A stretch of 64,000 bases of DNA from Mustelus asterias (Eukaryota). The first letter of the stretch is position 1; every line of letters begins with the position of its first letter. Below the pieces are notes generated by a model. The model saw nothing but the letters and a program-made list of their open reading frames with translations, searched no databases and had not been told where the DNA came from. The position numbers and the translations under genes were made by a program. The stretch lies in contig NC_135823.1 of NCBI RefSeq assembly GCF_964213995.1, positions 310,001 to 374,000 of the forward strand. The letters are read 5' to 3'. Shown here piece by piece: positions 11,696 through 63,580 of this stretch.

Positions 11696-12104
11696 CGCTT
11701 GAGATAGAAAATTGCCTGAGACGGCAGCTCACTGTGGTTTTTCGTTTTTTACAGTTGAGGCGCTACACCTACCCAACAGCCTCCAGAGATCAGAAGCTGA
11801 AACACAATGTTAAACCGCAGAGAGAAGACGGTTGGGCATTCAAGATAGATTAAGCTGATCAGAGAACCTGTTTGTTTACAATTAAGCCATATTCCAGGAA
11901 CCTATTCAAAAGACAATTAGTCACTATTTGCAAGCATTCCGAGGATTGGGTACAATTCGCAGAAACCCCCTCTGATTCACAACATACGCACGCAAGTCAC
12001 AAATAATTTGTAGAATATTTTCACTTCTCTTTATGAGGCAGCTTGCATCAGGAATCATGTGCAACCTCTTTACAGAATGAATTAGATTGGACACAATTAC
12101 ATTA

Positions 12105-13329: not shown

Positions 13330-13510
13330 CCAGTTCACCGCTGTGACGCACGGTCGAGGACCACACGGTGTCAAATGAATTGGAATTCACCAGCACACCG
13401 CACCAAACTTGTGTCATACTTTCCATTGCATAGCTCGTCATAATTTCCACTGTATCTGAAAGGGACGAAACTCTCTGGGTCTGAGCTGAGGTCAACCTGC
13501 GGCCATTAAC
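13330..13510 (+). promoter_or_regulatory. Diverged homologue of the VJ-C1 promoter, in the opposite orientation
   Basis: Its reverse complement aligns co-linearly with 51880-52060. It has an exact 20-mer TTGTGTCATACTTTCCATTG (13409-13428), a second composite at 13434-13448 and GACCACA at 13359-13365, with near-identical spacing. Confidence 0.75.
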
Positions 13511-13569
13511 CCTACAGAAACCAACTGGTCACATAACATGTAGAAATAACGCGTAAAGGTATCCAAAGA

Positions 13570-13627
13570 ATGCTTATCTGGAAGACTTATTTTCTTGCTG
13601 TGGCGTGTTTATGACAAGTGAAAGAAG
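13570..13627 (+). pseudogene. Leader exon of a probable paralogous IgSF gene with a premature stop: MLIWKTYFLAVACL*QVKE(G)
   Basis: The ATG lies about 142 nt after the conserved 20-mer (about 134 nt in the intact gene). It has a hydrophobic leader, a phase-1 donor AAG|gtaaga and an in-frame TGA at 13612-13614. Confidence 0.6.
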
Positions 13628-13630
13628 GTA

Positions 13631-16210
13631 AGAACTAGAACATAGAACATTGAACATAGAACAGTACAGCACAGAACAGGCCCTTCGGCCCACGATGTTG
13701 TGCCGAGCTTTATCTGAAACCAAGATCAAGCTATCCCACTCCCTATCATTCTGGTGTGCTCCATGTGCCTATCCAATAACCGCTTAAATGTTCCTAAAGT
13801 GTCTGACTCTACTATCACTGCAGGCAGTCCATTCCACACCCCAACCACTCTCTGCGTAAAGAACTTACCTCTGATATCCTTCCTATATCTCCCACCATGA
13901 ACCCTTTAGTTATGCCCCCTTGTAATAGCTCCATCCACCCGAGGAAATAGTCCTTGCACGTTCACTCTATCTATCCCCTTCATCATTTTATAAACCTCTA
14001 TTAAGTCTCCCCTCAGCCTCCTCCGCTCCAGAGAGAACAGCCCTCGCTCCCTCAACCTTTCCTCATAAGACCTACCCTCCAAACCAGGCAGCATCCTGTT
14101 AAATCTCCTCTGCACTCTTTCCAGCGCTTCCACATCCTTCTTATAGTGAGGTGACCAGAACTGCACACAATATTCCAAATGTGGTCTCACCAAGGTCCTG
14201 TCCAGGTGCAGCATAACCCCACGGCTCTTAAACTCCAACCCCCTGTTAATAAAAGCTCACACACTATAGGCCTTCTTCACAGCTCTATCCACTTGAGTGG
14301 CAACCTTTAGAGATCTGTGGATATGGAACCCAAGATCTCTCTGATCATTCACAGTCTTCAGAACCCTACCTTTGACCCTGTAATCCACATTTAAATTAGT
14401 CCTACCAAAATGAATCACCTCACATTTATCAGGGTTAAACTCCATTTGCCATTTTTCAGCCCAGCTTTGCATCCTATCTGTGTCTCTTTGCAGCCTACAA
14501 CAGCCCTCCACCCCATCCACTACTCCATCAATCTTGGTGTCATCAGCAAATTTACTGATCCACCCTTCAGCGCCCTCCTCTAAGTCATTAATAAAAATCA
14601 CAAAGAGCAGAGGACCAAGCACTGATCCTTGTGGCACTCCGCTAGCAACCTGCCTCCAGTCCGAAAGTTTTCCATCCACCACCACCCTCTGTCTTCGATC
14701 AGATAGCCAATTACCTATCCAATCTGCCAACTTTCCCTCTATCCCACAGCTCCTTATTTTCATCATAAGCCGACCATGCGGACCTTATGAAACACCTTAC
14801 TAAAATCCATGTAGATGACATCAACTGCACTACCTTCATCAACACACTTCGTTACCTCCTCAAAAAATTCAATCAAATTTGTGAGGCACGACTTGCCCTT
14901 CACGAATCCGTGCTGACTATCCCGGATTAATCCGCATCTTTCTAAATGGTCGTAAATCCCATCCTTAAGGATCTTTTCCATCAATTTACCAACCACCGAA
15001 GTAAGACTAACCGGTCTATAATTACCAGGGTCATTTCTATTCCCTTTCTTAAACAGAGGAACAACATTCGCCACTCTGCACTCCTCTGGGACCATCCCGT
15101 GGACAGTGAGGCCCAAAAAATCAAAGCCAAAGGCTCTGCAATCTCATTCCTTGCCTCCCAAAGAATCCTAGGATATATTTCATCAGGCCCAGGGGACTTA
15201 TCGAACTTCAGTTTATTCAAAATTGCCAGTACATCCTCCCTCCGAATAACTATTTCCTCCAGCCTATTAGCCTGTCACACCTTCTGTTCCTCAAGAACAT
15301 GGTGAACACTGAAGAAAAATACTCATTCATCACCTCGCCTATCTCCACTGACTCCATACACAAGTTCCCATTACTGTCCTTGAACGGCCCTAACCTCACC
15401 CTGGTCATTCTTTTATTCCTCACATAAGAGTAAAAAGCCTTGGGGTTTTCCTTGATCCGACCCGCCAAGGACTTCTCATGTCCCCTCCTAGCTCTCCTAA
15501 GCCCCCTTTTCAGCTAATTCCCTGCTAACTTGTAACCCTCAATCGAGCCATCTGAACCTTGTTTCCTCACCCCTACATAAGCTTCCCTCTTCCTTTTCAC
15601 AAGACATTCCACCTCTTTCGTGAACCATGGTTCCCTCACTCGGCCATTTCCTCCCTGCGTGACAGCGACATACCTATCAAGGACACCCAATATTTGTTCC
15701 TTGAAAAAGTTCCACTTTTCATGAGTGCCTTTCCCTGACAGTTTCTGTTCCCATCTTATGCCCCCTAATTCTTGCCGAATCGCATCATAATTACCTCTCC
15801 CCCACTTGTAAACCTTGCCCTGCCACACGGCCCTATTCCTCTCCATTGCAATAAGAAAAGACACCGAATTGTGGTCACTATCTCCAAAGTGCTCTCCTAC
15901 AACCAAATCTAACACTTGGCCCGGTTCATTTCACAGTACCAAATTCAATGTGGCCTCACCTCTTGTCGGCCTATCCACATATTGTGTCAGGAAACCCTCC
16001 TGCACACACTGCACAAAAACTGCCCCATCCGAACTATTTGACCTACAAAGGTTCCAATCAATATTTGGAAAGTTAAAGTCCCCCATGACAACTACCCTGT
16101 GACCACCACACATATCCATAATCTGCTTAGCAATTTCTTCCTCCACATCTCTATATCTATACTTATATCTATAAGTATCTATATCTATAATTTCTTCCTC
16201 CACATCTCCA
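13631..16210 (-). mobile_element. CR1 LINE, ~2.6 kb, frameshifted ORF2 (endonuclease C-terminus to RT) with an intact 3' tail
   Basis: ORFs contain VVMGDFNFPNIDW, SDHN, KSPGPD, PQGSVLGP and KFADDTK; (agaacat)n tail. Confidence 0.95.
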
Positions 16211-40568: not shown

Positions 40569-43500
40569 CTGGGAAATATGTTCAACAGAAATGATCGAAA
40601 TGATTAAAATAATGGGCTTTTACCCCAAATTAATTCCAATGCATTTTATTATAATGGTTTCAATGCACTCACCTGTATTCCACGCTGCGTTTTCAAGTTT
40701 ATGTCTGTTTGACGGTGATCCCCTATGGGTTAAGCATTAAACTATGAATTTAAATATCACCCAACCTATACAATCTATAATTACATAAAGACATCGTGTA
40801 CCGATATGCCAAAAATGTAAAGTTTATTTAACAGTGTCACAAATGGACTTACTTGCAAAGAAGTTACTGTCTAAATCCTCTCGTCGTCATGCTCTGGCGC
40901 CTGTTCAGCCACACTGAGGGAGAATTTAACATCACCAACGCACCTAACCAGCACATCTTTCGGACTGTGGGGGGAAACTGGAGCATCCGGAGGAAACGCA
41001 TGCAGACAGTGACCCAAGCTGGGAGTCGACCACGGATTCTTCACGCTGTGAGGCAGCTGTGCGAACCACTGTGCCGCCCCAATATGTTCACAGGCCACAA
41101 TCATTAACACACAGCCACTTAAATTTTGCCAACACGGCAGATCTGCCACAACGTTTCATTGTCAGTTAGACATAGCTCTGGAGACGAAGCGGATCAAAGG
41201 ATCAAACGGGGGAAGCCGTGGTCAGGCTATTCAGTTGGGTGATCAGCCAGGACCATAGTGAATGGCGGAGCAGAATCAAAGGACAGGATGGCATCATCCT
41301 GCTCCTATTTTGTTTGTGTCTATGTTATGTGGCAAATGCTTGATTGAGGAAAATCTCACACCAGTACTTGTCACTGACTGTCCACCTGGTATACCACTAC
41401 CTGTATTAATATCAACAATTTTCCCTTTATTGAAACCAACAGATACATCAATGACTGTTGAACTTGCTGAAGGTCAGAAACACACATTGTATACGGATAT
41501 AGTAAGCACACACATTGAGGCGAATTCAATGAAACAACGCAGGGGACAGCCATTCCCTGGTTCATTCTTCGGGCCAATGCCCTGGCCAATCAGTCAAACG
41601 ACCTCTTTTTAATTTTTCAGCAAGTAGTAAATAAGACAAGTGATTTGTTGGTCTTCATAGCGACAGGACTTGAGTATAGGAATGGGATATTTTATTGGAA
41701 TTGTATGGGGCGTTCGTGAGAAATATTGTGTACAGTCTTGTTATTCTTATCTGAGGAACGATCTACCTGTTATACAGGGAGTACAGCGAACGCTTACCAG
41801 CTGATTCCTGGATGGCAGGGCTGTTATATGAGGAGAGACTAAGTCGGTTAGGATTGTATTCACTGGAGTTGAGAAGAGTGAAAGGGGGATTCCAAAGGAA
41901 CGTATAAGGTTTTGACAGGATTCGATAAGATAGATTGAGAAAGAATGTTCCCAATGGTGAAGGAGTCCAGAAAAAGGGATCATAGATTGAGGATAAAGGG
42001 GAAACGTTTTCGAACTGAGGTGAGGAGAAACGCCTTCTCCCAGAGGTTGGTGAATGTGTGGAATTCGCTACCACAGAAAGTAGTTGAGGCCAAAACGTTA
42101 TGTGATTTCAAGAAGAATTTAGATGTAGCTCTTGGGGCTAAATGGATTAAAGGATGTGGGGTGGGGGGCAGGGGGTGGGGGGGAATGGGGAGGGGGGTGG
42201 GGGAGGGGGATCAGGATATTGAATTTGATGATCAGCCGTGATCATAATGAATAGCAGAGCAGGTTCGAAGGACCGAATGGCGTACTCCTTCTCGTTTCTA
42301 TGTTAACAAATGTAGGCAGATAACGGGCAATCATCAGTTAACTGCAGCATTCTCCATAAAAAGGCTGCAACCAATCAGAGTCCTTTTGCTAAACAGGGAA
42401 ATAGTGTCTCAGGAAGAATGCACAATTGTTCCCCTTACATCTGTTATTCTCGTGTTTTTTTGCTGATGAACACAAGGTCAAAAGCCTGGATGATATGTTT
42501 TTTTCAGCAAAACTCAAGTAGTGCAGTTATTCAAATTTTCTTTCAAACAAGTCTCAGCAGTTAACTGTCAGCACCAATGCACTGGCACGTTCTCCATAGG
42601 AACGCGTATGCCAATTAACTTCCACTTCAATTCTTTCATTCGGATCCTTAATCTCCGCTAACATTTCAAAGAAACCTACCCGTGTGTCGCTCCTTACGTC
42701 CCTCGTGCTGCCTTCTCTCGTTCAAGCTAAAATTGGATGTGGGAAAAGAACACCAAACAAATGTTAGATCTTGGATATTCTATCTCAGGTGCTGCAACTT
42801 GTTGAAAATAGGATTGTCTCGTGATCTTACAGAAATCATAGAAAATAGAGACTCACACCGCTGGAATCAGTTTGCAAATTGAAACTGGTTTGACAAAATG
42901 TAAAACAGAGAAAGATGGACGATGGTGAACTTTGCACATGGTTCTACTCACGTTTCATTGTGGGATCCCCTGTCTCTGTCTTCTAAAATAGAAGAACATA
43001 TGATTAGCTAATTAAAAACTACAAAGAGGAAATCGTATTGGAGAAACAGTTATTAAAATTTTCCAGATAATTATGAATCCTCACCTGATGTGTCATTTTT
43101 ACAACTCCAAATGGAAATAAGGACCAACAGTAGAATCAGTATGACCAGGACAGAAATTCCAACATAAATCGTCTGTCTGCACCATTCTATAGAGAAAAAA
43201 CACTTAGAAACTGCATCGGTCAAATCATTCCTTTCCGCGGTTCACTGAAGGGAAACGTGACCCAGTTAAAAAGGTGGAGTCACCAAAGCGGTGGGTAAAT
43301 GTGGAAACTAAAACACAGTTAGTGGAATGGATAGTGGAGAATGAACACACAGAATGGAATTGATGGCAAAATATTTGCTAGTGGATATCAACTAATTAAC
43401 AACACTATCAGAGTTGCCAATATTCACAGTGTATCAGAATGTATAATACCATACGACCATAAGATATAGGAGCAGAATTAGGCCACTCGGCTAATCGAGT

Positions 43501-50305: not shown

Positions 50306-51831
50306 ATATATACTTAGACACACACATATATATCCCCAGATGCCTGGGATCTACTAAATTAATCCAATTGACTCTAAAGTTGAACAAAAGTCTTCAATGT
50401 ACAGAGTAGCATCTCACCTTTCCATTTTTCAGTTGCTTTGGGATTCGAAACACTCTTCGTCCAATATTGCCCTGGAGTCCCCAATTCAACAATACAAGTA
50501 CAGACAGCGCCGCTTTTCCAGGTTTCCGCCGACACCATGACGTGACTTCTGATGCTGTAGGTCCCGTCGCCCTCCATTGTCCCGGGATCACTCGATCCCT
50601 CAGTGACCAAGCCGGAAATGTTCCAGAAAATAGCAATCTGGTTGGAACAAACTCCACTGACCAAACACGCTAAGGGCACGGTATCATTCACATCCAGCTG
50701 AGCCGGCGGGACAAATACTATCACAGCCGTCTTCTTCGTAGAACTGTCTGGACAGAGATTGGGACACAGTTCACGATTAATTCACACCAAGTGGTGTTGC
50801 TGTGCAGAATCTGAATTCATTTCACTTGCTCTCTTACCTCCAACCAGCAGTGTTGGTCCATTCTTGAGCGGTTGAAAGCCATGCTTACGAGCACAGTAGT
50901 AGGAACCCGAGTCATTCGCCTGAACATTGCGAATTTCCAGTAACAATTCACCTTTGCCGTGGCCCTTTTTTGAAATAAACTTACAACCGTCTCCCTGACA
51001 GGATTGGATATCGATTAGTTTCGGAATTTCACCAACACTTTGTTTGTACCAGAAATAGCTAGCCACGAATTCCACCTCGGATATGTGGTGACAGGTTAAA
51101 TTCACCGTCTGGCCGACTTCAGCTGTCATTGTGAAGGGCCTTTGAGGTAGAGAGGGCTCAGAATCTGTAACTAGAGAGGTTATTGACACATTACCACAGA
51201 TTATTTCGACATAGAAAGCTGCCGTTTGAAAACAAAAACGCCCGTAAATTAAGAACAATCTCGTTAATGTCTTCAATTATACTTCCTTAGATTTATTTTC
51301 CAAGTTGTGTTTTCTTCGCTTGAAAGGAGGAAACAGAAAACCCCTTGTACCGATCACTATGTCGCATTTGCAGTGCTGTAGCCGGGCGGCATGGTTGTTG
51401 GAACCATTGCTTCACAGCGCTCGGGACCCGGGTTCAATTCCTGGCTTGGTTCACTGTCTGTGCACGTTCTCCCCGTGCCTGCATGGGAGATTCCTCCCAC
51501 TGTCCGAAAGCCGTGCTGGTTAGGTGCATCGGCCGTGCGAAATTCTGCCTCTGTGTACCAGCACTGACGCGGGAGTGTGGCGACTCCGGGCTTTTCACAG
51601 TAACTTCATTGCAGTGTATGTAAAAGTAAAGATTATTTATTAGTCACAAGTAAGGCTCCCATTAACCCTATAATGAAGTTACTGTGAAATTCCCCTGGAA
51701 GCCGACTTCTGACACTAATGCTTAAAAACTAATTTGGCTGCTGCCATTTTAAATGTCTCACCTGGCAAATACTCAACATGAGCCCGCAACACGTGGAGAA
51801 TGAGTATCAGGGATAAAGATTGCTGGGACAT
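40491..51831 (-). CDS. Spliced gene for a non-rearranging VJ-C1 IgSF type I membrane receptor with an ITIM-like tail; join(51762-51831, 50838-51170, 50418-50747, 43085-43186, 42952-42982, 42680[or 42698]-42726, 40673-40722, 40491-40568), about 346 (or 340) aa
   Basis: All introns are GT-AG with compatible phases (1,1,1,1,2,1,0). The frame is open from ATG at 51831 to TGA at 40491-40493. Domain order is leader, V, C1, TM, cytoplasmic tail. Confidence 0.85.
40673..40722 (-). CDS. Exon 7: cytoplasmic (DHRQTDINLKTQRGIQ)
   Basis: Acceptor cccatag, donor CAG|gtgagt; 50 nt, phase 1-0. Confidence 0.75.
40818..41080 (-). mobile_element. HE1-like V-SINE (intronic)
   Basis: Core and tail. Confidence 0.8.
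41655..42305 (+). mobile_element. Degenerate CR1 3' end (intronic)
   Basis: FRTEVRRNAFSQRLVNVWNSLP plus tail. Confidence 0.8.
42680..42726 (-). CDS. Exon 6: cytoplasmic mini-exon (TLNERRQHEGRKERHT), with an alternative in-frame donor at 42698
   Basis: Acceptor ttcttttcccacatccaattttag; donors CGG|gtaggt or GAC|gtaagg, both phase 1. Confidence 0.7.
42952..42982 (-). CDS. Exon 5: cytoplasmic mini-exon (EDRDRGSHNE)
   Basis: Acceptor ttcttctattttag, donor AAC|gtgagt; 31 nt, phase 1-2. Confidence 0.75.
43085..43186 (-). CDS. Exon 4: stalk and transmembrane segment EWCRQTIYVGISVLVILILLLVLISIWSCKNDTS
   Basis: Acceptor ttttttctctatag, donor CAG|gtgagg; 102 nt, phase 1-1; about 21 uncharged hydrophobic residues. 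Confidence 0.9.
43448..43960 (-). mobile_element. CR1 3' end (intronic)
   Basis: ccataagatataggagcagaattaggcc tail; homologous to 1-330. Confidence 0.85.
44225..44845 (+). mobile_element. CR1 3' end (intronic)
   Basis: RPHLEYC / FKVRGERLERDVR motifs. Confidence 0.85.
45370..45755 (+). mobile_element. CR1 3' end (intronic)
   Basis: TRGHKFKVRG plus tail. Confidence 0.8.
45995..47170 (+). mobile_element. Rex1/Babar-like LINE ending in six tandem copies (~96-100 bp) of its 3' terminus
   Basis: FRFRGVHITNNLPWSLHADAIVKKAHQCLYFL; the unit caagatacaatac starts at 46604, 46700 and 46796. Confidence 0.9.
47803..48100. mobile_element. Palindromic Penelope-like end with hammerhead-like cores, nested in a Rex1 end (47510-48290, minus)
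   Basis: tttcgagtc..gacttttcgtcagag / ctttgaagaagggtcatctagactcgaag mirror pair; an internal insert is flanked by a duplicated agcgtctgagggga. Confidence 0.7.
48385..48870 (+). mobile_element. HE1-like V-SINE with tandem units
   Basis: Head, core, four ~45-bp units and tail. Confidence 0.85.
49950..50207 (+). mobile_element. Rex1/Babar-like 3' end
   Basis: FKNSFFPAAI.LLN; tail gtgacaataataaatcaaa. Confidence 0.8.
50238..50305. repeat. (CA)n microsatellite just downstream of the C1 exon
   Basis: Direct reading. Confidence 0.95.
50418..50747 (-). CDS. Exon 3: Ig C1-set domain
   Basis: VIVFVPP...VPLACLVSG...IAIFWNISG...DGTYSIRSHVMVSAETWKSGAVCTCIVE. Acceptor ctctgtccag, donor AAG|gtgaga; 330 nt, phase 1-1; only a 90-nt intron separates it from the V exon. 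Confidence 0.95.
50838..51170 (-). CDS. Exon 2: Ig V-set domain with in-exon J-like G strand
   Basis: GQTVNLTC...YFWYKQ..GEIPKLI...LLLEIRNVQANDSGSYYCARK...NGPTLLVG. Acceptor ctctctag (an alternative in-frame ttacag lies 6 nt further), donor GAG|gtaaga; 333 nt, phase 1-1. Confidence 0.95.
51384..51730 (+). mobile_element. HE1-like V-SINE in the leader-V intron
   Basis: Head, core and a tail with a short internal inverted duplication. Confidence 0.8.
51762..51831 (-). CDS. Exon 1: signal peptide MSQQSLSLILILHVLRAHVEYLP(G)
   Basis: ATG in the context gcaaaATG, a hydrophobic core, and a phase-1 donor CAG|gtgaga typical of IgSF leader exons. Confidence 0.85.
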
Positions 51832-51879: not shown

Positions 51880-52060
51880 TTGCTGAGCGGCCAAGGACTG
51901 ACCTGGTCTCAGTCCCAGTTAATTGTTGCACTTTGAGATTGGGCGGAAACTATGACAAGAGACACAATGGAAAGTATGACACAATGCTGGTGGCGTAGCG
52001 CTGCGGAATGCCACATGCATTTGACGCACTGTGGTCGCCGCCGACGTGTCGCAATGTTCA
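51880..52060 (-). promoter_or_regulatory. Proximal promoter of the VJ-C1 gene: NFAT:AP-1-like composites (51965-51984, 51945-51959), RUNX TGTGGTC (52030-52036), CCAAT/GC box near 51938-51946
   Basis: CAATGGAAAGTATGACACAA and GGAAACTATGACAAG fit the GGAAA-N3-TGAC composite. The block is conserved in the paralogous copy at 13330-13510. Confidence 0.7.
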
Positions 52061-56462: not shown

Positions 56463-57235
56463 TTGAAAAGGTTTAGCCATATCCTCAAGTATGATCCCTC
56501 GTACGTGACACAACCTGCTTGCACAGAAACTGGAAAATATTGGATGGACTGTGGGTGAATACATTTGAAATGCTCAGTGGCGGCCTTAATGAGTTGTTTC
56601 GATGCTCCCTGTATGTAAAGAATGCACTGCTCGCTGATTGAGGGAATAATCATTTGTGAGTGAATCTGGGCATCTTTAACCTGTCTTCCAAACTGGGCCT
56701 TGAATAAACACATGGACCTAGTGTCGTATTTATGAGGACACTGCACATAAGGTCATTCATACAATAACCTGGTCTTTGTTCGTTGTATCAAAGCTGGCAG
56801 CAGACAGTCTGCTGCTTGCGGTTTCAAGCTGAGAGCCAAGCTGTGCTCTCGGCAGGCAGCTCTGTGCGTGCAGCGTCTCAACGGTGAAAACAAGCAAACC
56901 ACTGAGAGTTTCTGGCTCGAATAATTTCCCATCATTGGTGTAAAGTGGATGGAATCTTGGCTAGCGACTTCCGCCCCTCGATGTCCTCTGCACACCTCAG
57001 AACATGCGAGCCGTCCTTGTGTGGGTAGAAGCTAACAGCCGTGGCCAGAGCTAATGTGCCTCTTTGCACTCTTTTTCGGTAATGTGCCTCTTTGCTACCA
57101 CGTCAAACCCTCTGTTGCAGGGTCGACTGACTCACTTCATTTTCATTCGAGGTCATGCACTTATGCAGGACAATTCAGGCACTCAATTCCCGGTAATGTC
57201 AGAAGCCATTCGACAAATCTCTTTATATTAAAGAA

Positions 57236-58740: not shown

Positions 58741-60925
58741 ATAAGACCATAAGACCATAAGACATAGGAGCCGAAGTAAGGCCATTCGGCCCATCGAGTC
58801 CACTCCACCATTCAATCATGGTTGATTTCAACTTCATTTACCCGCTCTCTCCCCATAGCCCTTAATTCCTCGAGAAATCAAGAATTTATCAATTTCTGTC
58901 TTGAAGACGCTCAACGTCTCGGCCTCCACAGCCCTCTGTGGCAATGAATTCCACAGACCTACCGCTCTCTGGCTGAAGAAATTTCTCCTCATCTCTGTTC
59001 TAAAGTGACTCCTTTTATTCTAAGGCTCTGCCCCCGCGTCCTAGTCTCCCCTGCTAATGGAAACAACTTCCCTACGTCCATCCTATCTGAGCCGTTCATT
59101 ATCTTGTAAGTTTCTATTAGATCTCCCCTCAACCTCCTAAACTCCAATGAATATAATCCCACGATCCTCAGACGTTCATCGTATGTCAGGCCTACCATTC
59201 CTGGGATCATCCGTGTGAATCTCCGCTGGACCCGCTCCAGTGCCAGTATGTCCTTCCTGAGGTGTGGGCCCCAAAATTGCTCACAGTACTCCAAATGGGG
59301 CCTAACCAGTGCTTTATAAAGCCTCAGAAGTACATCCCTGCTTTTGTATTCCAAGCCTCTTGAGATAAATGACAACATTACATTTGCTTTCTTAATTACG
59401 GACTCAACCTGCAAGTTTACCTTTAGAGAATCCTGGACTAGGACTCCCAAGTCCCTTTGCACTTTAGCATTATGAATTTTGTCACCGTTTAGAAAATAGT
59501 CCATGCCTCTATTCTTTTTTCCAAAGTGCAAGACCTCGCACTTGCCCACGTTGAATTTCATCAGCCACTTCTTGGACCACTCTCCTAAACTGTCTAAATC
59601 TTTCTGCAGCCTCCCCACCTCCTCAATACTACCTGCCCCTCCACCTATCTTTGTATCATCGGCAAACTTGGCCAGAATGCCCCCAGTCCCGTCATCGGGA
59701 TCGTTAATATATAAAGAGAACAGCTGTGGCCCCAACACTGAACCCTGCGGGACACCACTTGTCACCGGTTGCCATTCTGAGAAAGAACCTTTTATCCCAA
59801 CTCTCTGCCTTCTGTCTGACAGCCAATCGTCAATCCATGTTAGTACCTTGCCTCGAATACCATGGGCCCTTATTTTACTCAGCAGTCTCCCGTGAGGCAC
59901 CTTGTCAAAGGCCTTTTGGAAGTCAAGATAGATAACATCCATTGGCTCTCCTTGGTCTAACCTATTTGTTATCTCTTCAAAGAACTCTAACAGGTTTGTC
60001 AGGCACGACCTCCCCTTACTAAATCCACGCTGACTTGTCCTAATCCGACCCTGCACTTCCAAGAATTTAGAAATCTCATCCTTAACGATGGATTCTAGAA
60101 TTTTGCCAACAACTGAGGTTAGGCTAATTGGCCTATAATTTTCCATCTTTTTTCTTGTTCCCTTCTTGAACAGTGGGGTTACAACAGCGATTTTCTAATC
60201 CTCTGGGACTTTCCCTGACTCCAATGACTTTTGAAAGATCATAACTAACGCCTCCACTATTTCTTCAGCTATCTCCTTTAGAACTCTAGGATGTAGCCCA
60301 TCTGGGCCCGGAGATTTATCAATTTTCAGACCTTTTAGTTTCTCTAGCACTTTCTCCTTTGTGATGGCAACCATATTCAACTCTGCCCCCTGACTTTCCT
60401 GAATTGTTGGGATATTACTCATGTCTTCTACTGTGAAGACTGACGCAAAGTACTTATTAAGTTCCTCAGCTATTTCCTTGTCTCCCATCACTAGATTACC
60501 AGCGTCATTTTGGAGCGGCCCAATGTCTACTTTTGCCTCCCGTTTGTTTTTAATGTATTTAAAGAAACTTTTATTATCATTCCTAATGTTACTGGCTCGC
60601 CTACCTTCATATTTGATCCTCTCCTTCCTTATTTCTCTCTTTGTTATCCTCTGTTTGTTTTTATAGCATTCCCAATCTTCTGACTTCCCACTACTCTTTG
60701 CCACATTATAGACTCTCTCTTTTGCCTTGATGCATTCCCTGACTTCCTTTGTCAGCCATGGCTGCCTAATCCCCCCTCTGATAACCTTTCTTTTGTTTGG
60801 GATGAACCTCTGCATTGTGTCCTCAATTACTCCCAGAAACTCCTGCCATTGCTGTTCTACTGTCTTTCGCACTAGGCTCTGCTTCCAGTCGATTTTTGTC
60901 AGTTCCTCCCTCATGCGCCTGTAAT
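58741..60925 (-). mobile_element. CR1 LINE, 2.2 kb, relatively young (385-aa and 273-aa ORF2 segments)
   Basis: Full RT motif set NYRPISLTS, DFQKAFDKV, PQGSVLGP, FADDTK; (ataagacc)n tail. Confidence 0.96.
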
Positions 60926-61649
60926 TAAGATGGAGGAGTATTGATACATGAGCTGATTCGGACAGTCTGAGGTAAATAGCAGGACGTTTCCTTGTCCATG
61001 GGTGTGCTGTTGGCAAGTAACGTCTTGTGCTCTGGAGAAGATTTTGGGAACTCAGTGTATAAATCTGAGATTCTACCTCCGTTCCGACTGCATGCTACTG
61101 TAGCGCCACCTCAGGGATGGTGATGGTGGTGTCTGGGACTTCCTCTGCCGGATGTGATTCCCTGAGTATGACGATTACAACCTTTTCCTTTCCTATTCGG
61201 AAAGAAGGAGCCGGCGGTGGAAGGGGGAGGGTGGGGGGGGGGGGGGGGTGGTGGGGGGGGGGGGGGGGGTGGAGGGGGGGGGGTGGGGGGGGGGAGAGAG
61301 AGGGAGGTGGGTAGGAATGCATTTCCTCTAAATTTGGAAGAGGCCCCCAGACGTTCTTAAGGACTACTTTGATGGGTCAACAGATTTGAGTTCGCATTTT
61401 ATTTCTGCTGTTGTTTTTGGTGTCTCCATCAATGTTGAGCGAATCTCCCTGATCTAGTCCTATTGTGCTGTTTTTATCCAATGGGGTGACATAAAAGCTA
61501 TCTCAGAGGTCTGGAATCATAAGTAGGCAAGGTCAGACTGGGCGCAGAGCGACCATTTCATTCACTAAATGAGAAAAAATGTATGCAATGTTTCTTTATG
61601 ACGATCGATCACGGTTTCGGGGTCTCTATAACTGGGGCGTGTTTTTGGA

Positions 61650-63580
61650 ACCATAGAACCATAGAAAATTACAGCTCAGAAACAGGCCTTTTGGCCCTTC
61701 TTGTCTGTGCCGAACCATTTTATGCCTAGTCCCACTGACCTGCAATTGGACCATATCCCTCCACACCCCTCTCATCCATGAACCCGTCCAAGTTTTTCTT
61801 AAATGCATTAACCGCTTTATCCGGCAGCTCATTCCACACTCCCACCACTCTCTGCGTGAAGAAGCCCCCCCTAATATTCCCTTTAAACTTTTCTCCTTTC
61901 ACCCTTAACCCATGCCCTCTGGTTTTTTTCTCCCCTAGCCTCAGTGGCAAAAGCCTGCTTGCATTCACTCTATCCATACCCATCAAAATCTTATACACCT
62001 CTATCAAATCTCCCCACAATCTTCTACGCTCCAGGGAATAAAGTCCCAACCTATTCAATCTCTCCCTGTAACTCAGCTTCTCAAGTCCCGGCAACATCCT
62101 TGTGAACTTTCTCTGCACTATTTCAATCTTATTTACATCCTTCCTGTAATTAGGTGACCAAAACTGTCCACAATACTCCAAATTCGGCCTTATATAACCT
62201 TACCATAACACTCCAACTTTTATACTCGATACTCCGATTGATAAAGGCCAATGTACCAAAGGCACTCGTTACGATCCTATCCACCTGTGACGTCACTTTT
62301 AGGGAATTCTGTACCTGTATTCCCAGATCCCTCTGTTCAACTGCACTCTTCAGAGTCCTACCATTTACGCTGTACGTTCTTCTTTTGTTTGTCCTTCCAA
62401 AGTGCAATATCTCACCCTTGTCTGCGTTAAATTCCATTTGCCACTTTTCAGCCCATTTTTCTAGTTGGTCCAAATCCCTCTGCAAGCTTTGAAAACCTTC
62501 CTCACTGTCCACTACACCTCCAATCTTTGTATCATCAGCAAACTTGCTGATCCAATTGACCACAGTATCATCCAGATCATTGACATAGATGACAAACAAC
62601 AATGGACCCAACACCGATCCCTGCGGCACACCACTAGTCACAGGCCTCCACTCAGAGAAGCAATCCTTCACAACCACTCTCTGGCTTCTTCCATTGAGCC
62701 AGTGTCTTATCCAATTTACTACCTCCCCATGTATACCTAGCGACTGAACCTTCCGAACTAACCTCCCATGAGGGACCTTGTCAAAGGCCTTGCTGAAATC
62801 CAGGTAGACAACATCCACTGCCTTCCCTTCATCCACTTTCCTGGTAACCTCCTCAATAAACTCTAATAGATTGGTCAAACATGACCTACCACGCACAAAG
62901 CCATGTTGACTTTCCCTAATAAGTCCCTGTCTATCCAAATATTTGTAGATCCTATCCCTTATCACACCTTCCAATAACCTGCCCACCACCGACGTCAAAC
63001 TTACTGGCCGATAATTTCCCGGATTTCTTTTGGAACCTTTTTTAAACAACGGAACAATTTGAGCCACCCTCCAATCATCCGGCACCTCCCCCGTGAATAC
63101 TGACATTTTAAATATGTCTGCCAGGGCCCCTGCAAGTTCAACACTAGCTTCCCTCAAAGTCCGTGGGAATACCCTGTCCGGTCCTGGGGATTTATCCACT
63201 CTGATTTGCCTCAAGACAGCGAGCACCTCCTCCCCTTTAATCTGTAAATGTTCCATGGCCTCCCTACCAGTTTGCCGTATTTCCGTAGACTCCATGCCCG
63301 TTTCCTCAGTAAATACGGATGCAAAAAAACCATTTAGTATCTCCCCCATCTCTTTTGGTTCCATACACAGTCAACCACTCTGGTCTTCAAGAGGACCAAT
63401 TTTATCCCTCACTATCCTTTTGCTCCTAACATACCTATAGAAGCTCTTTGGATTTTCCTTCACTCTGTCTGCCAAAGCAACCTCATGTCTTCTTTTAGCC
63501 CTCCTGATTTCCCTCTTAAGTAGCTTCTTGCACTTTTTATACTCCTCGAGCATCTGATGTGTTCCTTGCTGCCTGTACAT
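61650..63580 (-). mobile_element. CR1 LINE, 1.9 kb (404-aa RT ORF)
   Basis: RT motifs; (ccatagaa)n tail. Confidence 0.96.

Follow-up and report, generated by a model that had tools for sequence, protein, structure and literature searches.

The stretch of DNA analysed here (64,000 nucleotides, G000:C23:310001-374000; hereafter the window) lies in a repeat-rich part of the 3.68-Gb genome of Mustelus asterias and contains an intact minus-strand gene with its ATG at 51831, in which eight exons with GT-AG junctions form an open frame of 346 aa for a V-C1-TM receptor. Its close protein relatives are all from sharks, and its exons are as follows:

51762..51831, minus strand: exon 1, leader (MSQQSLSLIL...), with its donor 15 nt downstream of the donor in the three closest sisters and the frame the same
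50838..51170, minus strand: exon 2, V domain in a single exon including the G strand, without a V-J split (Pfam V-set, E = 4.8e-12)
50418..50747, minus strand: exon 3, C1-set domain, separated from V by a 90-bp intron (Pfam C1-set, E = 1.8e-10)
43085..43186, minus strand: exon 4, juxtamembrane cysteine and uncharged transmembrane helix
40491..42982, minus strand: exons 5-8 (42982-42952, 42726-42680, 40722-40673 and 40568-40491), cytoplasmic tail

Within 51762-51780 the gene carries TT in place of the GT donor of exon 1 in the three closest sisters, and use of the in-frame replacement donor adds five residues. By its predicted domains the encoded product is an antibody-shaped, non-rearranging surface receptor. 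The canonical ITIM follows the consensus (I/V/L/S)xYxx(L/V), and the single tyrosine motif in the tail, GPLYASL, has proline at -2 instead of the hydrophobic residue and is thus only ITIM-like; the corresponding motif in sevengill shark and ray relatives is VLYASL or ILYASL. Decayed reverse-transcriptase-encoding LINE-like copies were found at 161-1923, 13637-16200 and 58989-63370, together with many SINE-like repeats, and self-alignment covers about half of the window.

The gene family

By genome searches with V and C1, approximately 47 V-C1 genes were found on the window's contig, of which 24 were of the type of the window gene (B type) and approximately 23 of a second type (A type). The cluster (G000:C23) occupies 80000-1720000 and 3.08-3.27 Mb and includes many head-to-head A/B pairs 10-23 kb apart, as well as four near-identical units of about 105 kb, one of which includes the window; at least 12 of the 25 B-type copies are broken in V or C1. 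A-type proteins are 40% identical to the B type and have a TLYARL tail, and both types carry a cysteine just before the TM. The J motif FGxG is present in the A type (FGNG, in FGNGSKL) and degenerate in the B type (LKNGPTL). MHC class I was absent from the window's contig, all 140 matches being on another contig. Similar proteins, all with automatic names, were found in rays, lungfish, coelacanth, turtles, a caecilian, a lizard, sturgeons, bichir and gar.

The PRARP pair of Fu et al. 2019 and the VJ-C1 genes of Ohta et al. 2019, both among the references of PMC10751288, reportedly comprise a germline single-exon V(J), a C1 domain, a juxtamembrane cysteine, a TM and one tyrosine motif, in two chain types. 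The shark family has the single-exon V with G strand, the C1-set exon, the TM and the tyrosine motif, and by these features it resembles PRARP and VJ-C1 genes, from which it differs in having approximately 47 copies with many pseudogenes and a B-type G strand without FGxG; no named PRARP sequence was among the protein matches to the family. UrIg and UrIg2 are, in the available part of PMC12227049, likewise non-rearranging shark VJ and C1 genes, but they have three and nine or more C1 domains, respectively, and are single genes linked to the MHC or an antigen-receptor complex and expressed in liver and gill, whereas the family described here has one C1 domain and a signalling tail and is multigenic.

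Four conserved blocks above the leader exon

An earlier note, made from the window's sequence, had singled out four blocks as the best conserved between two promoters. They are GGAAACTATGAC (51945-51956), CAATGGAAAGTATGACACAA (51965-51984), CATTTGAC (52018-52025) and TGTGGTC (52030-52036), which together span 114-205 bp upstream of the ATG of the minus-strand gene, and their second copies lie on the opposite strand at 13437-13448, 13409-13428, 13370-13377 and 13359-13365, respectively. The features at the two places are as follows:

51945..51959, plus strand: site 1, the one nearer the gene, 114 bp above the ATG; GGAAA-CTA-TGACAAG, with an NFAT-type core, a 3-bp spacer and a bZIP-type half-site
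51965..51984, plus strand: site 2, TGGAAA-GTA-TGACACA, 24 bp beyond site 1, the best conserved block
52018..52025, plus strand: conserved CATTTGAC block, in which TTTGAC is the kept part and the E-box-like CATTTG is not kept
52030..52036, plus strand: RUNX core TGTGGTC, present in three clades and lost through a 4-bp deletion in the fourth
13359..13494, minus strand: orphan promoter copy with its motifs on the minus strand, which would face rightwards; one of five in the cluster
13559..13628, plus strand: dead leader exon of the orphan, without the start codon and first donor; a retroelement insertion comes next to it downstream

The statement about the blocks held, since only 1 of the 47 block columns differs between the two copies, compared with 57 of the 128 other proximal columns, a contrast inflated by the choice of the blocks on that very pair. 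By permutation, a 20-base identical run at the identity of the pair had a chance of 0.004 over the 284 aligned columns and of 0.023 over the best 138 columns. The evidence for a footprint from this pair alone is modest. The units of site 1 and site 2 share 15 of 24 bases, and the doublet probably arose by an old 24-bp duplication. Some 35-45 bp below site 1, at approximately 51899-51914, (C/T)TGACCT...TC(T/A)GA(G/C)(T/C)C is also conserved, in which TGACCT resembles a nuclear-receptor half-site; one broken paralogue has a perfect TGAGTCA in the matching stretch.

Conservation among the B-type promoters

Because the evidence from the pair was modest, all 25 B-type loci were compared. A promoter copy was present at 23 of them, and promoter homology was absent within 10 kb for the other two (at 0.64 and 1.14 Mb). 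The promoter set (n = 29) consisted of the 23 B-type genes, one gene-less copy and five orphans, and was divided into four deep clades; the copy on contig C3499 lay outside this set. The gene at 1.004 Mb, with an insertion in V, and the gene-less promoter at 0.882 Mb were left out of the gene-body comparison. At 0.881-0.883 Mb, two promoter copies 1.2 kb apart were observed ahead of one broken gene.

For a held-out test, the blocks of the earlier note were fixed beforehand and the window's clade and the orphans were left out, leaving 15 genes. The 21 core columns required 0.81 parsimony steps, compared with 1.54 in 130 proximal non-block columns (p = 0.002), 1.64 at 36 four-fold sites (p = 0.006) and 2.36 in the distal columns, the p values being indicative only because neither columns nor copies are independent (recent 105-kb duplications, possible gene conversion). 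The CATTTGAC block required 0.88 steps against 2.01 in 17 held-out segments, with a background that included the faster distal columns; TTTGAC was found in 25 of the 29 segments and CATTTG in 18. Within site 2, TGGAAAGTATGACAC is identical in the consensus of all four deep clades and is the longest such run, and the deep clades differ at 39-47% of the other proximal columns in four of five cross-clade pairs and at 33% in the fifth. GGAAA-N3-TGAC is intact at site 1 in 18 of the 29 segments, at site 2 in 21 and at one site or more in 25, and at 1.199 Mb a gene whose V and C1 are open lacks an intact copy of either site.

A search of the 3.68 Gb with the doublet pattern gave 13 matches, all inside the cluster (control, 0). 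A transposon origin of the motif was ruled out by this confinement; 15 of the 18 matches of the 15-mer were in family promoters.

The doublet changed more slowly than its promoter neighbours and than four-fold sites, and is thus probably a selected cis-element; the sum of the evidence points to selection on both the doublet and TTTGAC. The footprint of constraint proposed from the window accordingly extends to the 15-17 held-out copies, paralogues that lay outside the view of the earlier note.

Candidate factors and other readings of the doublet

In the available parts of the sources, the NFAT core is given as A/T-GGAAA (PMC13297361) and the RUNX core as TGTGGT (PMC2952845), and NFAT/AP-1 composites need a fixed geometry but tolerate incomplete halves, as in GGGAAACACTGAGCAG, which has such halves and likewise a spacing of 3 bp and belongs to an inducible T-cell (GEM intronic) enhancer (PMC5632840). 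The window has TGGAAA at site 2, which agrees with the NFAT core, and CGGAAA at site 1, where the base before GGAAA is T in 24 of the 29 segments; GGAAA itself is intact in 23 of 29 at each site. GGAAA and TGA stand in the same orientation with a spacing of 3 bp at both sites. The AP-1 heptamer TGA(C/G)TCA was found in none of the 29 segments at either site. The kept heptamers are TGACAC(A/C) and TGAC(G/A)A(G/A), and those at site 2 included TGACACA (11 segments), TGACACC (10) and TGATTCA (1); with A at position 5 in 28 of 29 and C as the last base in 14 of 29, the distal AP-1 half of site 2 has not been kept. Since incomplete halves occur in described elements, a non-consensus heptamer lowers the membership of the doublet in the class and not its likeness to it. 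Of the tandem NFAT:AP-1 composites in the earlier note, the NFAT core, the 3-bp spacer and the TGAC layout thus stood, and the AP-1 consensus did not; the NFAT:AP-1 reading is plausible but imperfect.

The RUNX part of the proposed module fared similarly. TGTGGT is present in both window copies and in only 13 of the 29 segments at that position, with a 4-bp deletion in 15, which form one clade of 15 members, and a point change in one; in a scan of 283 columns, TG(T/C)GGT was absent on both strands in 9 of the 29 segments. These counts make the RUNX core an accessory site.

In mammalian TCR-inducible genes (IL2, the CSF2/GM-CSF enhancer and the GEM intronic enhancer), NFAT:AP-1 composites share with the shark doublet GGAAA, 3 bp and TGA on the same strand with imperfect halves, and in the GM-CSF enhancer, like the shark promoter, more than one composite is found within a short distance and near a RUNX core, to judge from the available parts of PMC5632840 and PMC2952845. 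The shark module differs in that its AP-1 half is never consensus (TGACAC, TGACG), RUNX is missing from half of the family, and the candidate module lies 114-153 bp above the ATG of a surface-receptor gene and not of a cytokine gene.

We consider it marginally probable that the B-type doublet is an NFAT plus bZIP activation module. NFAT would bind the GGAAA cores, and a bZIP dimer (AP-1/ATF-type) would bind the imperfect TGAC half-sites cooperatively, the weak AP-1 halves enforcing NFAT dependence. The doublet made by the 24-bp duplication would add gain and would render the B chain type inducible by calcium and kinase signals in activated lymphocytes, with RUNX as an accessory, clade-specific site.

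The doublet may instead be selected with a GGAAA partner other than AP-1, namely a T-box factor (T-bet/Eomes), MEIS/TGIF or CREB/ATF, or be read by another factor over the whole 15-mer, so that expression would be lineage-specific and not activation-induced; we regard this as somewhat unlikely. What does not vary at site 2 is TGACAC, and TGACG stands at site 1 in 17 of 29 segments; TGACAC is the reverse complement of the T-box core, GTGTCA, and TGACG a CRE half-site, and the kept heptamers also fit T-box, MEIS/TGIF or CRE half-sites. The promoters of the partner chain have a cytotoxic-lineage-like grammar: of the 11 aligned, 8 carry TTCACAC and 10 a RUNX core. On the other hand, both sites keep the orientation and the exact 3-bp spacing known for NFAT:AP-1, and hardly any variation is seen in GGAAA and TG, in contrast to the first spacer base (C, T or A at site 1, G or T at site 2).

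The NFAT plus bZIP module, if this is what the doublet is, carries no implication of the checkpoint-like role that had been drawn from the motif, since it also precedes a paralogue of activating type: the gene at 0.90 Mb has open V and C1, two TM arginines and an intact site 2. Two arginines (SIVRIVLLIR) were observed in the B-type TM exons at 0.904 and 0.965 Mb and on C3499, and His or Pro in the others. These are 3 of the 15 TM exons read, two of them from a broken gene present in near-identical copies. The arginines suggest that these paralogues are adaptor-coupled activating forms.

Of the approximately 23 A-type genes, 14 promoters were found and 11 were aligned, and GGAAA-N3-TGAC was present in none of the 11. 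Besides the motifs given above, CAGGAAAAC was found in nine of them and TCACACCT in four. Conserved above A-type leaders (11 loci), CAGGAAAACC(G/A)CA was observed, an ETS- or NFAT-like core overlapping a RUNX site, as was the T-box-like TTTCACACCT. A second conserved upstream block (U block) was found at two places in the window:

56802..56921, plus strand: U block, about 4.8 kb above the window's B gene, common to many B-type genes
11727..11879, minus strand: U block of the orphan promoter, about 1.5 kb above the orphan, with the RUNX-type sites TGTGGTTT and TGCGGTTT

Many B-type promoters have the U block 1.5-5 kb above them. In the opposite orientation it is similar to the core of the A-type promoter (AAACAGGAAA(A/G)CC(A/G)C), and it is possibly a remnant of a shared bidirectional control region. 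From the contrast between the promoters of the two chain types, a wider reading may be drawn, which we hold to be unlikely: the two types of this TCR-shaped family would be wired differently, B by a calcium/NFAT-responsive doublet and A by an ETS- or NFAT-like, RUNX and T-box promoter, and the head-to-head pairs would form an AND gate, at least as old as the horn shark split, by which dozens of germline heterodimers appear only on cytotoxic-type lymphocyte activation.

The second copy of the blocks had been taken for a broken receptor paralogue and credited with a retained enhancer function or a recent inactivation. It proved to be an orphan promoter with a dead leader exon only, present five times as part of the 105-kb unit. 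Neither tblastn nor DNA profiles revealed V, C1 or TM sequence behind it in the readable window and four unmasked sister copies; the profiles, over 13-20 kb of the sister copies and 26 kb of the window, gave one match only, at E = 0.28, and the copy is thus not a second receptor gene. Late inactivation relative to the duplication was borne out, as the stem of the orphans shows 0 changes in 19 core columns against 23 in 112 flanking columns, and the promoter thus worked long after the duplication. It would have been functional for much of its separate history, after which the gene was lost and the promoter has drifted since. The retained function was not supported: since their death, the oldest orphan copy and that of the window have come to differ at 2 of 21 core and 12 of 132 flanking columns, a neutral ratio of low power.

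The orphan copy at 13359-13494 could still be in use as an enhancer of the intact partner-type gene that has its leader some 20 kb further left, just beyond the edge of the window. The two are head-to-head in all five units, the partner promoters, as described above, lack the composite, and all 21 core bases are kept in four of the five orphan copies. Those four copies, however, diverge by no more than about 2% (5 of 271 outside the blocks), and the neutral comparison with the oldest copy, for all its low power, also weighs against this use, which we consider quite improbable.

That the blocks are just the parts of a duplicated promoter which by luck stayed alike, sharing ancestry and no special constraint, is highly improbable. 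They had been chosen post hoc on one pair, in which the 20-base run had a p value of 0.023 in the best-aligned columns; 10 of the 23 promoter-bearing genes are broken in V or C1; and in the 15 held-out genes the cores were not significantly slower than 72 columns of the V-C1 intron (0.81 vs 1.38 steps, p = 0.07). Against shared ancestry alone, the columns chosen beforehand were slow in the held-out copies, and none of 183 contiguous background windows, in a background that included the faster distal columns, was as conserved as the cores. The contrast was also stronger in the seven held-out genes with open V and C1 (0.33 vs 0.92 steps, ratio 0.36, p = 0.001) than in the eight broken ones (0.62 vs 0.95, ratio 0.65, p = 0.08), which is the expectation if constraint relaxes in pseudogenes.

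Finally, a constraint on RNA, in which the gene strand would read as a pyrimidine-rich 3' splice acceptor or a 5' UTR element of transcripts starting further upstream, is extremely improbable. In its favour, two clades show CTTTCCACAG at site 2 on the gene strand, and in three horn-shark models a coding exon takes in the region, with homology ending just above site 1. Against it, the window's clade and the orphan clade lack the AG at site 2, the purines in GTGTCA are fixed, unlike a pyrimidine tract, and the database models may be ab initio extensions. The N-terminal extensions of the three models aligned with the translated promoter with scores of 68-84, compared with shuffled maxima of 47-54. 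At site 1, two of the three (VILST and VTFST; protein models only) are compatible with GGAAA-N3-TGAC on the opposite strand, and the third (LITAT) is incompatible with GGAAA. Because the codons are ambiguous, these models give weak support to the motif across species.

Meaning for the receptor family

In a literature search that did not extend to two papers of possible relevance, Fu 2019 and Ohta 2019, no work was found on the promoter or on where the shark family is expressed. Four sequencing runs cover the introns, showed no joints at exon boundaries among those listed and look like DNA, and they speak neither for nor against expression. The regulatory grammar itself is already known, and the gain therefore is a handle on the family and not a new mechanism: the doublet would be a known grammar in a new place, a PRARP-like family. 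If the reading is true, the NFAT composite grammar of the mammalian style is present in cartilaginous fish. The family is ancient, with members from sharks to turtles, and little-studied, and databases wrongly label it as antibody chains; a chain-specific, activation-type module offers a 250-bp fragment with which to ask concretely in which cells, and when, the receptors are used. The doubled motif is a likely switch by which the receptor genes would be turned on in activated immune cells.
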